The position numbers were made by a program. DNA of 64,000 nucleotides from Escherichia coli (GTDB lineage: Bacteria > Pseudomonadota > Gammaproteobacteria > Enterobacterales > Enterobacteriaceae): assembly GCF_013122565.1 (NCBI RefSeq), contig NZ_CP053258.1; one strand, 5' to 3'. Shown here one piece after another: positions 34,501 to 40,500 of this stretch. The stretch's first letter is position 1, and every line of letters begins with the position of its first letter.

Positions 34501-37500
34501 CAGACTGTGGGTAAAACCACGATGCCCAAAAGCGCGGGCGATCGGTTTTGATATCCACTTTAATCGCTGCCCAAGAAACGACTTTGGGTGATCGATGTCC
34601 GGTAACAAACACGTCAGGATTGCGGAAGGGACAATATGCCACCAGTCACCCTGTGCCAGCACGGGCGTCAGCTCGGCATTTTTGGCAAATACCGCACAAG
34701 CAATAGAAAAGAGAAGGTGACCTTCCGCCGTCATGATAAAACTCACTAAACTGTCGATACGTACAGTATAGGGTTTTTATACAGTGCACGGAAGTGGTGA
34801 CGGTGTAACTCTTTCTCTTAAATTGACGATTAATCCGTCAGTTGAATGCAAATTCAGATAAAGAACCAGGAGCAGTGTGATCACTGCCCCTGGTCATTAA
34901 CCGAGAAGGTCTTTTGCGGTGAGTTCTGTCAGCGATGAGAGTTTGACGTTTGCTAATACAAAACGTGGATCATTTTGCGCTTCTGGCGCAGGAACGACGA
35001 TGGAACGCATGCGGGCTGCTTTAGAAGCGATCATGCCATTTACCGAGTCTTCCAGCGCCACGCAGGTCAGTGGGTCAACGCCCAGTTTTGCTGCGCAGTC
35101 GAGATATACTTGCGGATGCGGCTTGCTGTAAGGCAGTTTTTCAGCCGAGGCGAGGGCATCGAAACTGTCGCGTAAGTCAAACATGGTCAACACTTTTTCC
35201 AGCATATGTAGTGGTGACGCGGAGGCCAGTCCCACTAATAAACCTTGTTTTTTGCATAACGCAACGGCTTCACGCACGCCTGGTAATAATGGACGTGTCT
35301 CTTCAACCAGTGAAATGGCACGGGCAATAACCCGTTCTACTACTTCCTGACGGCTTGGCCCATTCCACGGTTGCCGGGCGTACCAAAGATCGACCACCAT
35401 ATCGATGCGTAAACCTAAGGTGTCCGGCAGCTCGTTACGACGGGAGATATCCACCCCCAGGCTTGCCATCACATCCAGTTCGGCTCGATCCCATAAAGGT
35501 TCTGAGTCGATAAGTAATCCATCCATATCAAAAATTGCAGCAAGAATCTGACGCGGGGTTGACATTACAACCTCTCCTTTAGAGCATTATGTGTAAGGTA
35601 TTAAGCCGTGCTTATGATTAAGCGCCTATCATATCGCCTTTAAAGAATGGGCGAAAACAGATATCTACAGGTAAACTAAGTGAAACGACGCGTCTTAATC
35701 AAGGAGAACTCATGACGTATCAACAAGCTGGACGCATTGCTGTTTTGAAAAGGATTATGGGTTGGGTGATTTTTATACCTGCATTGATCTCTACATTGAT
35801 TTCTTTGCTGAAATTTATGAATACCCGGCAGGAAAACCAGGAAGGCATTAATGCGGTCATGCTCGACTTTACTCATGTCATGATCGATATGATGCAGGCG
35901 AATACGCCTTTTTTGAATCTATTCTGGTATAACTCCCCGACGCCCAATTTTAATGGTGGCGTGAACGTTATGTTCTGGGTGATTTTCATCCTGATTTTTG
36001 TCGGACTGGCGTTGCAGGATTCCGGTGCCCGGATGAGTCGCCAGGCGCGCTTCTTGCGGGAAGGTGTTGAAGATCAACTCATTCTGGAAAAAGCCAAAGG
36101 GGAAGAGGGGCTAACGCGTGAACAAATTGAGTCCCGTATTGTTGTTCCGCACCATACTATTTTCCTGCAGTTTTTCTCACTGTATATCCTGCCGGTTATT
36201 TGTATTGCTGCAGGTTATGTGTTCTTTTCTCTGCTTGGGTTTATTTAATCAAAAGGCCGCACGGAGCGGCCATTATCCTCAACCCATATCATGCTGCTAA
36301 TAATCTATCCAGTGACTGCTGAGCAATAACCAAATGCTGACCGCCAAATAATCTTGCACGATTTAACAGCGTGTAGAGTTGGTAAACCGGTTGACGTTCA
36401 AGGAAATCGGCAGGTAGCGGGGATACTGACTGATAGCCGTCATAGATTTGTGGCGGCTGTTCAGTATGCAGCGGTAACATCGCCAGGTCGCACTCTCGGT
36501 CACCCCAGTAGCAGGCCGGGTCGAAAATGTATGGGCCATCCGGACCCAGCGCACAGTTGCCGGACCATAAATCGCCGTGCAACAGAGAAGGCTGCGGTTG
36601 ATGTGAGGCGAGACGCTGCTGAATATGCTCTACGATGGCGTCGATGTTGCCGAAAGCGATCCCTTTTTCTGCTGCCAGTTCCAACTGCCAGCCAATCCGT
36701 TGTTCAGCAAAAAACGTTGACCAGCGACGTTGCCAGGTGTTGGGCTGTGGAGTTGTGGAGAGCGCGTTATCGAAATCGAGGCCAAATTGTGGTTGGTCAC
36801 TCCATTGATGTAAACGCGCAATTTGCTGACCAAGAATAAATGCGCTATGCGCATCCAGCGGACGAGGTGGGAGATAATCCATCACCAGAAAACTGTAGTC
36901 ACGGTCAGCGCCTACTGCCCAAACCTTAGGCACGGTGACGGTTTTACTACGCGACAGTAACTCCAGTTGGTCGGCTTCGGCGGTAAAACCGGGAAGCAGT
37001 TCCCTTTCATCACATTTGACGAAAAAGTCATGTCCTGCATAGCGCAAATGCCATGCGGCATGGACTTCTCCGCCAGGCAGTTCATTACGCAGTTCGATTT
37101 CGCCTTCACCTAACTGCTCGCTCAAAAGACGACTGATTGCCTGCCACATGATGTCTCTCCCATGTTGTCTGCCAGATCATAAGGTTAGCGCAAGAATGCG
37201 GTGTAAAAACACGAGCTAACGCACACCACAGACTGATTATTGCCCAAAAACCATTTATTTTCTGTTGCTATTCCATTCCTCCCAGGTCGTGATGGTGATT
37301 TCAGGATCTTTGCCGGTTGCACTTTGGGTAAGCCCCGAAACCAGTTCTCTAATTTCTTCTTCACTTTGGGTACTGATAAGTCCAAAAGTGTTAGTCCCCA
37401 GCTCATGGATATTTCCCTCATCATCCGTCATGGTGAGCAAAAAACCGTCGCGAGTCAGGTAATTATTCAACTCGTTAATTTCAGTCAATGTATCCTCATG

Positions 37501-40500
37501 CAACATGACGGTTATGACATAACGGACAAGATCGCCACTGGCCATAGTTCACCCCTTTGTTATCACATGACTTTTGAGCATAGTCGGAGAAACGCGTTGC
37601 CGACAGGTTGGTGATGATTCCCCCAATGCTGGGGGAATGTTTTTGTTAGCGGGAAAGGTAAGCGTAAATTTTTTGCGTATCGTCATGGGAGCACAGACGT
37701 GTTCCCTGATTGAGTGTGGCTGCACTCCCCGCAGCTACGCCAAAACGAACCATCTCTTCAAGAGAGGCATTTTCTGCCAGTTTCAGTGTCATCGCGCCGA
37801 CCATGCTGTCACCAGCGCCAACGGTACTCTGGCTTTTCACCGGTGGTGGCACCACCTGAATGCAGTTTTCACTATCAACACCCAGCGCTCCTTGTGGACC
37901 CAGGGAAACGACAACCCGTTTGGCCTTGCCGCTATTAACGATTTCCTGCGCGGCTTTGCGGACATCGTCTGGCTGGGTGAGTTCGCGATTCACCAGCGCA
38001 CTGAGTTCTTTTTGGTTAGGCTTAACCAACTCGATGTTACCAATCGCCAGTGCTGCACTTAACGCTTCGCCAGAACTGTCGATGATGCAGCGGATCCCTT
38101 GGTTTTGCGCAGCGGAAATCAGTTGGGTTAATTTTTCCAGCTTCACACCTGGCGGCAGGCTTCCGCTTATGACCAGGATGGCCCCGGATTCAATTTCCAG
38201 AACTTGCTCTTCAAGCTGGCGAAACTCATCTTCATTTAATGCCGCGCCTGGCATAACAAAACGATACTGCTCACCGCTTGCTTCCACATGTACGTGTAAA
38301 TTCTGCCGGGTCCAGTCTTTGGCTTCTACAGTAGCGACGGGGACATTTTCATCCGCCAACAGTGAAACCAGGTGTTCGCCGGTCGCGCCACCCGCCGGGA
38401 AGATCGCTGTGGCACTGCCTCCAAGATGGGCAATGGCGCGGGCGACGTTGATGCCGCCGCCCCCGGGTTCGAACACCGGTGCGGTACAGCGCAGTTTTCC
38501 TTCGGGATAAATTTGCGGGGTAATTGTTGCGCTATCGAGAGAGGGCGCAAGTGTCAACGTATAGATACGTACCATCATTTCCTCCTATAGACTGATTTCA
38601 GTCTGGCACCGAATCAGCGGAAAGTGAAGAAATTAACAATATGATTTATTGGAGCTTTATTTAAAATTTTGCAGATAAATATATATAAATAAAAATCTGT
38701 TTTCGCCACATGCTTATTCAAAAAATGAAATAAGAATACATTGCTAAGTTATTCGCGCCTTTTTATAATTCGTTACCTTTCCAGGGACGCTAATCTTTGA
38801 TCCTTAAGAAAGTTTCCGGGACCGCGATGGTCTCTTTTTTTGTTGTACGGACTCTTGATAAATGAAGCTTTTGAAGACAGTTCCTGCCATCGTTATGTTG
38901 GCGGGGGGCATGTTTGCGTCACTGAATGCAGCTGCCGATGATTCCGTTTTTACTGTCATGGACGATCCTGCCAGCGCTAAAAAACCTTTCGAAGGTAATC
39001 TGAACGCAGGATATCTTGCACAATCAGGCAATACGAAAAGCTCCTCACTTACGGCTGACACCACCATGACCTGGTATGGACAAACCACTGCCTGGTCGCT
39101 GTGGGGGAACGCCAGTAATACTTCTTCTAATGATGAGCGTTCTTCAGAAAAATATGCGGCGGGCGGGCGTAGCCGTTTTAATTTAACTGATTATGACTAT
39201 TTATTTGGTCAGGCAAGCTGGCTGACAGACCGTTATAACGGCTATCGAGAGCGCGATGTGTTGACCGCGGGTTATGGTCGTCAGTTTTTGAATGGCCCGG
39301 TACACAGTTTCCGCTTTGAATTCGGTCCAGGTGTGCGTTACGACAAATATACCGACAATGCCAGTGAAACCCAGCCGCTGGGCTATGCCTCCGGGGCTTA
39401 TGCATGGCAGTTGACTGACAACGCTAAATTTACGCAGGGTGTTTCGGTCTTTGGCGCGGAAGACACAACGCTGAACTCCGAAAGCGCATTAAATGTTGCT
39501 ATTAATGAACATTTTGGACTGAAGGTGGCTTACAACGTCACATGGAACTCTGAACCTCCAGAGTCTGCACCGGAACATACCGACCGTCGGACAACCTTAT
39601 CGCTGGGCTACAGCATGTAAAATTATCTGCCGGACCGTGTTATGCGGTCTGGCTGTCTTCGTTTGTCACTGCTCAGCCCCAAATCATTGCTGCCCAACGT
39701 AGCAACAACATAGCGCCACAGATTGCCAGTAGCACCACCACCATCTTCCAGTGTTTTTTATCAAAGCGTTTAGTCGGCATACCAGTGTCCTGCATATCTC
39801 TTGTGCGTGATAACGGAGTGTAACAAAAGGGACAGGCATCAAGGGATTTTTTGTTATTACAGCCGTCGGGTGGCGTTGTACACCTGATCACTGTTTCTGC
39901 GTTTTATGAAAAAATAAAATTATGTATCGATATATAAATATCGTAAATAGCTGGTTATAAATACGTCTTTAATTCATCAGCACTAAAACTCAGGCTTTGG
40001 CTGATTACATTTATAGCAGCATAATATGTTTCTACAGTTTTATAATGATTATGATGAATGGCTATATGAACAGCTGACATGTTGTCATGATTTTTAGCGG
40101 CCAACAGTGTAAATAACTGATGTTGGCTAAAAGAATATTTTTTTGCAAAAGTATCCAGCGTCGATATATAAGATAACATGACGTCTTTATTACCCTTGCT
40201 CATAGCGATGTATAAAGCAGGGGTTCCATGTACTGTTGCGCCTTTTAATAAATCTATGATGTTAATTTTGCTGAGGTTGTATTTAACAGCGATTCCATAA
40301 ATTTTAGAGAGGAACCGTGTGACACACAACGGGTGATTATTTTCCATTGCAGCAAATAACCCTGGTTCACCATCACGTGTTTTCATGGCTAAAATATCCA
40401 TCACCATTTTTTTGTTTAAATGCTTTTGTGCTATTCGAGCGGTTAATGTATTCAGAAAGATATCGATTATCTCATCGAATCCATACAACATGGAGATATA

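Follow-up and report, generated by a model that had tools for sequence, protein, structure and literature searches.

Fructosamine-3-kinase (FN3K) family proteins (PF03881) include human FN3K and FN3K-RP and the structurally characterized Arabidopsis (6oid) and T. fusca (3f7w) proteins, and the characterized members of the family act on ribulosamines, erythrulosamines and fructosamines, whether free or bound to protein. In human FN3K, D217 and W219 are indispensable to activity (bioRxiv 10.1101/2025.07.30.667714; PMC11754801), the D217N and D234N variants are inactive (PMC11754801), and H288 touches the substrate analogue DMF, with H288F lowering activity (bioRxiv 10.1101/2025.07.30.667714; PMC11754801). 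GhoS (YjdK; 2llz), of the family PF11080, is the endoribonuclease antitoxin of the type V system GhoST. The one orphan toxin of the GhoT family in E. coli, OrtT, is without a known antitoxin (PMC4344625). Here, we compare two adjacent E. coli genes, yniA and ydiZ, with these systems. We favor, with a probability of roughly 0.55, a joint explanation in which YniA would be an active FN3K-family kinase with a non-ketosamine acceptor and YdiZ an independent GhoS-like neighbor.

Both genes lie on the minus strand of a 64,000-nucleotide stretch of E. coli contig NZ_CP053258.1 (hereafter, the window). yniA (36289-37149) encodes 286 amino acids, and ydiZ (37255-37545) encodes a 96-amino acid product with 18 acidic and 6 basic residues (pI 4.23); ydiZ lies immediately downstream of pfkB, itself on the minus strand (37646-38578). 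The preliminary description had the two open reading frames exactly right, as it did the acidic character of the ydiZ product and its place downstream of pfkB. The genes are real and not chance open reading frames. They are already catalogued in K-12, where YniA and YdiZ match NP_416239.1 and NP_416238.1, respectively, at 100% identity, and their family membership is ordinary. Of 5426 complete E. coli genomes, 5424 have the yniA/ydiZ region, and the gene order pfkB-ydiZ-yniA also occurs in Salmonella, Kosakonia and Pseudescherichia. Compared to other genera, dN/dS was 0.01-0.03 for yniA, a comparison in which synonymous sites are saturated, and 0.04-0.15 for ydiZ. Across enteric genera, YniA identity is 85-99%, on par with PfkB, the glycolytic isozyme encoded alongside. 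A search for known RNA families in 35500-39000 returned zero at E ≤ 1, and PADLOC defense-system models gave no match to YniA, YdiZ or YniB. Searching the literature under the gene names, b-numbers and UniProt accessions of YniA and YdiZ yielded only transcriptome tables, with no YniA activity reported.

To place YniA, we matched it to profiles, predicted its structure and aligned it with 118 family representatives (119 sequences in total) and, separately, with orthologs from 80 further species (81 Enterobacteriaceae in total). Residues 1-285 of the 286 match the Fructosamin_kin profile PF03881 (E value 1.2e-117; 392.7 bits against a curated cut-off of 22.4), and the protein also matches the APH profile PF01636 (E value 8e-19). 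The AF2 model (pLDDT 97) has the APH/protein-kinase-like fold; its top Foldseek match was PDB 3jr1 (TM 0.95, RMSD 1.8 A), and it compares with human FN3K at a TM-score of 0.82-0.85 and with the human, plant and T. fusca FN3K proteins taken together at 0.81-0.85. The structure prediction suggested in the preliminary description thus returned the FN3K fold, and the HGDLWSGN motif reported there falls at residues 191-198 (H191-G-D193-L-W195-S-G-N198; 36556-36579, minus strand). H191, D193, W195 and N198 do not vary among the orthologs (81/81), and H191 and N198 are likewise fixed across all 119 family sequences; D193 and W195 align with human D217 and W219. The Asp-containing segment noted downstream of this loop is likewise present, reading F-D210-P-A-C-Y-W-G-D-R-E-C-D, in which D210 (36520-36522, minus strand; invariant in 81/81) aligns as the metal-binding Asp of the DPA motif, the counterpart of the DFG Asp of kinases and of D234 in the human enzyme. 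The beta3 ATP-binding Lys, K45 (37015-37017, minus strand), and its alphaC partner Glu, E58 (36976-36978, minus strand), are invariant in all 119 family sequences and all 81 orthologs. Fold, Lys-Glu pair, HGDxWxxN loop (HGDLWxGN in the family and in YniA) and DPA Asp are therefore all in place, together with the Trp flipping onto the gamma-phosphate of ATP and the C-terminal-helix residues N263 and F268 (W195, N263 and F268 corresponding to human W219, N287 and F292). Loss of the catalytic Asp or His residues on careful alignment would have spoken against an active enzyme; none is lost in YniA relative to the 118 representatives or the 80 orthologs. As all residues for phosphotransfer are kept, an active kinase is a reasonable reading of the sequence. 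YniA would fold correctly and act as a kinase of small molecules or of glycated proteins, catalytically competent as judged by its residues, and may move the ATP gamma-phosphate to a substrate hydroxyl.

The acceptor pocket of YniA, by its aligned residues, departs from the canonical ketosamine-binding design. We took the pocket residues from the contacts of human FN3K to DMF (bioRxiv 10.1101/2025.07.30.667714; PMC11754801) and transferred them to YniA by alignment, which places two subgroup-specific residues in the putative pocket: H228 (36466-36468, minus strand), replacing the pocket Phe (human F252), and R264 (36358-36360, minus strand), replacing the sugar-amine-binding His (human H288). 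Both are invariant in 81/81 Enterobacteriaceae. Among the 119 family sequences, the His at the H288 position is found in 111, all of which (111/111) also have Phe at the F252 position and both Asp residues; YniA is one of the 8 sequences lacking that His, and Arg takes its place in YniA, in a Xenorhabdus representative (P0168) and in two others. Around H228, the family loop LFGGFP becomes LHTEQP in YniA, with HTEQ for FGGF, and E28 occupies a P-loop position that is Asp, Cys or Ser in canonical members. E28 and C220 are also invariant among the 81 orthologs, while R266, close to R264 in sequence, is Ile in 66/81 species. The invariant R264 may select for an acceptor bearing negative charge, for example a phosphorylated or carboxylated sugar adduct. 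It is on this one invariant Arg that the idea of an anionic acceptor hangs.

The closest solved structure, the Haemophilus somnus "putative fructosamine-3-kinase" 3jr1, is 41% identical to YniA and belongs to the same non-canonical subgroup lacking the pocket His. It differs from E. coli YniA, which retains both Asp residues, in having Asn at both the catalytic (HGN) and the metal-binding (NPA) position, a difference predicted to leave it catalytically dead. Two near relatives from Pasteurellaceae (P0179) and Vibrio (P0182) also read HGN and are without the catalytic Asp, and in total 4 of the 8 non-canonical representatives, YniA counted among the 8, are without one or both catalytic Asp residues. 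The Pasteurellaceae gene adjoins thrS-infC-rpmI-rplT, as does E. coli yniA, and on the basis of this common neighborhood we consider it the positional ortholog of yniA. Given the loss of Asp in the Pasteurellaceae and Vibrio relatives, the common function of the subgroup may not need catalysis.

These observations bear on what YniA does. Purified E. coli YniA was reportedly inactive on every ketosamine tried by Gemayel et al. in 2007, the one inactive protein among five bacterial homologs; the screen with ketosamines proposed in the preliminary description would thus already have been done, with a negative outcome. This inactivity, alongside the lack of any reported YniA activity, would fit equally well with a pseudokinase or a ligand-binding protein conserved for a role other than phosphotransfer, and it counts against a standard bacterial ribulosamine/erythrulosamine 3-kinase engaged in repairing ribose 5-phosphate-glycated proteins, as the characterized bacterial, plant and FN3K-RP enzymes are. 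The pseudokinase reading draws further on the 4 of 8 non-canonical representatives with missing Asp and on the H. somnus positional ortholog, as Asn at the same two positions (D217N, D234N) leaves human FN3K dead. However, all catalytic residues are invariant in the 81 Enterobacteriaceae at a dN/dS of ~0.02, which is hard to square with dispensable catalysis, and we regard this reading as unlikely for the E. coli protein. A conventional repair kinase would be in keeping with the full-length Fructosamin_kin match, the fold shared with human, plant and T. fusca FN3K, the retained catalytic residues plus W195, N263 and F268, and the stationary-phase expression of yniA; set against these are the Phe/His of 111/111 canonical representatives, where YniA has His/Arg, and the reduced activity of human H288F (PMC11754801), and we judge it quite improbable. 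The preliminary description had YniA as probably an active kinase, by implication one with FN3K-like ketosamine specificity. The first part stands in that every phosphotransfer residue is kept, whereas the implied specificity is weakened by the two pocket substitutions (F252 to H228, H288 to R264) and by the sister lineages without the catalytic Asp. Under the joint explanation that we favor, YniA is probably an active kinase on something besides the usual ketosamines; its substrate would be other than the ribulosamines, erythrulosamines and fructosamines of its characterized relatives, and intact phosphotransfer residues in combination with a non-canonical pocket explain why ketosamine screens would fail. 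More tentatively, proteins of the YniA type from Enterobacterales, Pasteurellaceae and some Vibrio could form a distinct FN3K offshoot that has moved off ketosamines, being an active stationary-phase kinase in Enterobacteriaceae, possibly on an anionic sugar adduct via R264, and a pseudokinase in sister lineages. If this were true, E. coli K-12 would hide a new metabolite-repair or signaling reaction.

In contrast to the earlier statement that ydiZ has no recognizable motif, which was wrong, YdiZ matches the GhoS profile PF11080 over residues 1-94 (E value 3.7e-49, 165 bits), and true GhoS scores 139 bits against the same model. The AF2 model of YdiZ (pLDDT 76) predicts a ferredoxin-like beta-alpha-beta-beta-alpha-beta fold with a C-terminal helix, and its highest TM-score in the PDB was to GhoS 2llz (0.71, probability 1.00). 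An hhalign comparison of YdiZ with a GhoS alignment was in register (E value 2.7e-4, probability 42%), and the two proteins, which are of equal length, have in common a beta2-beta3 hairpin signature, D-x-x-G...L-x-x-N-x-F, also in register. BLASTP of YdiZ against true GhoS gave no alignment and phmmer of YdiZ against the PDB gave no match, such that the homology becomes visible only with the Pfam profile, with hhalign and when folds are compared. YdiZ is a small acidic remote paralog of GhoS, and the K-12 record names it "putative endoribonuclease YdiZ." Extrapolating from a paralog without detectable pairwise similarity, YdiZ may have RNase activity, binding or cleaving RNA in trans during stationary phase. 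Unlike ghoS, ydiZ is not followed by a ghoT-like gene: the gene downstream is yniA, no adjacent gene of the GhoT/OrtT toxin family (PF10753) is present, and we found no GhoT-like or hydrophobic open reading frame among all those of at least 20 amino acids in 37100-37700. The two also differ in distribution, as YdiZ is vertically inherited across Enterobacteriaceae and GhoS does not extend beyond Escherichia and Shigella. At this locus, YdiZ would not serve as a type V antitoxin.

The automatic RefSeq name nevertheless has YdiZ as a true type V antitoxin, which would have to cleave the mRNA of GhoT or of the orphan GhoT-like OrtT in trans. Its PF11080 membership and GhoS-like model allow for this, OrtT lacks a known antitoxin (PMC4344625), and OrtT and YdiZ are similarly widespread in Enterobacteriaceae, where GhoS is found only in Escherichia and Shigella. 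However, a genomic-library screen yielded no OrtT antitoxin (PMC4344625), the ydiZ locus has no toxin gene next to it, pairwise similarity to GhoS is not detectable, and both Intestinirhabdus alba and Citrobacter sp. Res13-Sevr-PEB04-36 have OrtT with a pfkB-yniA locus from which ydiZ is absent. We consider an antitoxin role highly improbable, and YdiZ as the missing antitoxin of OrtT in particular is weakened by this phyletic pattern and the published screen (PMC4344625). The label "type V antitoxin GhoS" is carried by ydiZ in thousands of RefSeq genomes, and toxin-antitoxin counts relying on the name are inflated. A functional operon of ydiZ and yniA, with YdiZ for example processing the transcript of yniA or that of pfkB, or both products serving one pathway, is also very unlikely in our estimation. 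The two genes share a strand, their spacing stays constant at about 105 nt in 63 species, no terminator was predicted between them, and both go up at the transition to stationary phase (PMC2241611). Nonetheless, ydiZ has been lost in 17 of the 80 species that retain yniA, with independent losses in the Citrobacter freundii complex, Kluyvera, Yokenella and Intestinirhabdus that left yniA and its upstream block intact; yniA occurs without ydiZ in Pasteurellaceae and in Xenorhabdus, which keeps yniA-yniB without pfkB or ydiZ; and the evolutionary rates of the two genes, as measured by dN/dS, are far apart. In the joint explanation, YdiZ would accordingly be a neighbor independent of YniA, not a partner.

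Finally, we characterized the sequences flanking yniA. The ydiZ-yniA spacer (37150-37254, minus strand) holds a promoter-like or operator-like block that is conserved in 81 species, its conserved parts being TGTGCG (37225-37220), TGCGCTAAC (37192-37184), TTATGAT (37182-37176) and the Shine-Dalgarno region, AACATGGG (37166-37159), all on the minus strand. This conserved block of ~75 nt occurs once in the window and is kept also in the 17 species without ydiZ. Folding of the spacer RNA was no better than that of shuffled sequences (z = 0.16), and a sigma-70 promoter scan of the spacer gave nothing convincing; we did not assign a promoter because TTATGAT sits 20 nt from the sole -35-like hexamer. 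The conservation of the block suggests a separate promoter for yniA, whose transcription appears to be driven by a conserved promoter region of its own just upstream. In published arrays, yniA is induced as cells enter stationary phase (PMC2241611) and is RpoS-dependent in EDL933 (PMC2907692). At the other end of the gene, a terminator was predicted at 36255-36271 (minus strand), with a GC-rich hairpin, GGCCGCTCCGTGCGGCC, followed by a T-run, TTTTGATTAA, and it falls within the 40-nt gap that yniA shares with the convergent yniB.

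yniA (36289-37149; 286 aa) and ydiZ (37255-37545; 96 aa), both on the minus strand, lie exactly where the preliminary description had placed them. They encode proteins 100% identical to their K-12 counterparts, which are annotated as "putative kinase YniA" and "putative endoribonuclease YdiZ". The gene order tcyP-ydjM-hxpB-yniB-yniA-ydiZ-pfkB-ydiY-arpB is that of K-12, the window is E. coli chromosome, and we found a 3.1-kb stretch around yniA-ydiZ in 5424 of 5426 complete E. coli genomes. Because dN/dS against other genera was low (0.01-0.03 for yniA and 0.04-0.15 for ydiZ), both are genuine genes under purifying selection. 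Across Enterobacteriaceae (80 species-level genomes plus the window), protein identity was 85-99% for YniA, similar to its neighbor PfkB (77-98%) and higher than YniB (71-98%) and YdiZ (50-96%). The order pfkB-ydiZ-yniA is kept in 63 of the 80 enteric species and is also seen in Salmonella, Kosakonia, and Pseudescherichia. yniB (35712-36248, plus strand; PF14002), convergent with yniA, is its most persistent neighbor, still adjoining it in Xenorhabdus (L007:6203-6742), where pfkB, ydiZ, and hxpB are missing. The K-12 record already lists both genes together with their families and "putative" names, and nothing in our results would greatly surprise a specialist. Our analysis adds a sequence rationale for YniA not being a canonical ketosamine kinase, the prediction of catalytically dead sister lineages, among them the one solved structure of its subgroup, a conserved putative regulatory block upstream of yniA, and the point that the common RefSeq label "type V antitoxin GhoS" on ydiZ is probably over-transferred.

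In YniA the preliminary description had noted motifs typical of kinases with the fructosamine-3-kinase (FN3K)/aminoglycoside-phosphotransferase fold. Pfam Fructosamin_kin covers its whole length (E = 1.2 × 10−117), the APH phosphotransferase family is also matched, and the nearest solved structures by sequence are the putative fructosamine-3-kinase 3jr1 of H. somnus (E = 6 × 10−71), Arabidopsis FN3K 6oid, T. fusca 3f7w, and human FN3K. An AlphaFold model built from 60 homologs (mean pLDDT 97) matched 3jr1 with a TM-score of 0.95 and an RMSD of 1.8 Å, and human, plant, and T. fusca FN3K with TM-scores of 0.81-0.85; aminoglycoside and choline kinases ranked next (0.45-0.67). HGDLWSGN occupies residues 191-198 (window 36556-36579), and the downstream Asp-containing segment reads FD210PACYWGDRECD. 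An exhaustive HMMER search against representatives of sequences clustered at 50% identity gave 4885 relatives, and we aligned YniA with 118 full-length representatives drawn from the 150 best of these matches. In this alignment (n = 119), K45, E58, H191, G192, and N198 were invariant, D193 was present in 116 sequences and D210 in 117; in the Enterobacteriaceae set all seven residues were invariant (81/81). Since none of the catalytic residues varies among these enteric sequences, the condition under which the preliminary description would have been refuted, a catalytic Asp or His missing from a careful alignment, does not hold; YniA retains them all, and its phosphotransfer machinery is intact.

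The acceptor side looks different. Human FN3K contacts the substrate analogue DMF through I25, G152, D217, W219, F252, N287, H288, H291, and F292, with I25, D217, and W219 being essential (bioRxiv 10.1101/2025.07.30.667714); D217N and D234N abolish its activity and H288F reduces it (PMC11754801). We mapped these residues using the HMMER alignment of YniA with the human chain. D217, W219, D234, N287, and F292 are conserved as D193, W195, D210, N263, and F268, I25 is conservatively changed to V29, and H291 corresponds to L267, Leu being also the bacterial and plant consensus, while F252 and H288 are replaced by H228 and R264. His stands at the H288 position in 111 of the 119 aligned sequences, all of which also carry Phe at the F252 position and both catalytic Asp residues. 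In the remaining eight, which comprise YniA and those relatives that are nearest to it or most aberrant, this residue is Arg, Leu, Gln, or Cys, and four of the eight also lack one or both catalytic Asp residues. Within Enterobacteriaceae, H228, R264, C220, and E28, a P-loop position at which other family members carry Asp, Cys, or Ser, were invariant in 81 of 81 sequences; R266 varies. Together, these patterns argue for a non-canonical acceptor pocket and place YniA in a small non-canonical subgroup of the fructosamine-kinase family. The invariant Arg at the amine-contact position may even suggest a negatively charged acceptor, though this is weakly founded speculation.

The earlier reading of YniA as a probable active kinase thus holds for the catalytic residues, whereas the FN3K-like ketosamine specificity that it implied is weakened. 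We propose that the YniA of enteric bacteria is an active kinase and that its acceptor would be other than the usual ketosamines: its fold, ATP site, and catalytic residues are all retained under very strong constraint, and its acceptor pocket is altered, yet equally constrained. The main rival is that the role shared by the subgroup needs no catalysis, as the sister lineages would suggest. Among the named members of this subgroup, the Xenorhabdus representative P0168 (58%) retains the Arg; 3jr1, P0179 from a Pasteurellaceae MAG (locus L008), and P0182, representing a Vibrio algivorus/rumoiensis/litoralis cluster, carry HGN in place of HGD, and 3jr1 additionally has NPA in place of DPA. These three are the closest relatives outside Enterobacterales, and they are predicted to be pseudokinases because the equivalent human changes (D217N, D234N) abolish activity. 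The Pasteurellaceae gene adjoins thrS-infC-rpmI-rplT, a neighborhood shared with E. coli yniA, and is therefore its positional ortholog. For E. coli itself, however, a non-catalytic role is hard to square with catalytic residues that do not vary at all across 81 enteric species. Turning back to an active kinase with an unusual acceptor, Gemayel et al. in 2007 reportedly found four of five bacterial homologs to be ribulosamine/erythrulosamine 3-kinases and E. coli YniA to be inactive on every substrate tried. If so, the ketosamine screen that had been suggested was already done with a negative outcome, which fits the pocket analysis. A new repair or signaling reaction, if true, would make a worthwhile de-orphanization.

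YdiZ is indeed highly acidic (18 D+E versus 6 K+R, pI 4.23), but the statement that it has no recognizable motif was wrong, as Pfam PF11080 (GhoS) matches end to end (E = 3.7 × 10−49). In most E. coli genomes the RefSeq pipeline calls ydiZ "ghoS" (type V toxin-antitoxin system endoribonuclease antitoxin GhoS). True GhoS (yjdK, b4128, followed by ghoT) scores 139 bits on the same model, and the real ghoS-ghoT pair lies at another locus (L001:2585-3082; K-12 ydiZ is at L094:6401-6691, NC_000913.3). BLASTP gave no alignment of YdiZ with true GhoS, and a sequence search of the PDB gave no match. Profile-profile comparison of a 16-sequence YdiZ and a 6-sequence GhoS alignment (E = 2.7 × 10−4, probability 42%) paired YdiZ 26-71 in register with GhoS 27-72 over a common hairpin signature, DxxG..L..N.F. 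The AlphaFold model of YdiZ (pLDDT 76) has a beta-alpha-beta-beta-alpha-beta order with a C-terminal helix, and in TM-score (0.71/0.69 over 97 columns) the GhoS NMR structure 2llz stood well ahead of all other PDB chains, with PII and ACT domains outranking it by E-value. The Pfam match, the profile alignment, and the fold comparison point to YdiZ as a remote GhoS paralog with the same predicted fold, and the antitoxin name is likely an over-transfer from the Pfam family. YdiZ also matches the phage family of unknown function phrog_8894 (E = 1.6 × 10−5), and there is a weak match to "YmfI family phage protein" of NCBIfam (E = 0.0027), which hints at prophage members of the GhoS/YdiZ fold family.

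No small hydrophobic ORF was found near ydiZ, the next gene being yniA, and YdiZ most probably does not serve as a type V antitoxin here. ydiZ has been lost in the Citrobacter freundii complex (L026, L029-L036, L039, L069), Kluyvera (L064, L067, L072, L076), Yokenella, and Intestinirhabdus, with L049 and L087 among the loci lacking it; there the pfkB-yniA gap is about 270 nt versus about 500. In the C. freundii complex, residual sequence aligns with the ydiZ 3′ end from other Citrobacter, indicating deletion rather than primary absence. Xenorhabdus and Pasteurellaceae likewise have yniA without ydiZ, so the two are neighbors and no obligate pair. YdiZ is also unlikely to be the missing antitoxin of OrtT, an orphan GhoT-like toxin, because two species that carry OrtT have no ydiZ at their pfkB-yniA locus (L032, L049) and screening of a genomic library yielded no antitoxin for OrtT (PMC4344625). 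Within Enterobacteriaceae, OrtT is as widespread as YdiZ, and GhoS is confined to Escherichia and Shigella. Our best guess, held with low confidence, is that YdiZ may act in trans during stationary phase by binding or cleaving RNA.

In published arrays, yniA was among the RpoS-dependent genes of O157:H7 EDL933 (PMC2907692), and yniA and ydiZ both rose at the stationary-phase transition in O157 Sakai (PMC2241611); after rifampicin, ydiZ mRNA showed relative enrichment (PMC13256715). Within roughly 75 nt upstream of the yniA start codon lie blocks (TGTGCG, TGCGCTAAC, TTATGAT, and the Shine-Dalgarno region) kept in at least 90% of 81 species, over evolutionary distances at which synonymous sites of the flanking genes are saturated. 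Because conservation is equal in the 17 species without ydiZ, yniA most likely has a promoter and operator of its own in this region. Of the conserved blocks, which together span 37159-37225 (minus strand), the distal one, TGTGCGTTAGCTCGTG, is similar to a CRP half-site, and TGCGCTAACCTTATGAT contains possible −10 elements. In the ydiZ-yniA spacer we found no canonical sigma-70 promoter or terminator, no Rfam match, and folding no better than in shuffled sequence. The terminator of yniA is a hairpin with a T-run (36271-36255, minus strand) in the short gap shared with convergent yniB. The gap from the stop codon of pfkB to the start of ydiZ holds a 9-bp GC-rich hairpin (ATTCCCCCAATGCTGGGGGAAT, 37617-37638) that is followed by a T-run on the plus strand alone, which has no gene ending there; on the pfkB strand it has no U-tract. 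Further along, arpB, annotated as a pseudogene in K-12 (b4494), is an intact 632-aa ORF in the window (39955-41853, minus strand), with an N-terminal ShET2-enterotoxin domain (PF07906, E = 1.8 × 10−45) followed by ankyrin repeats.
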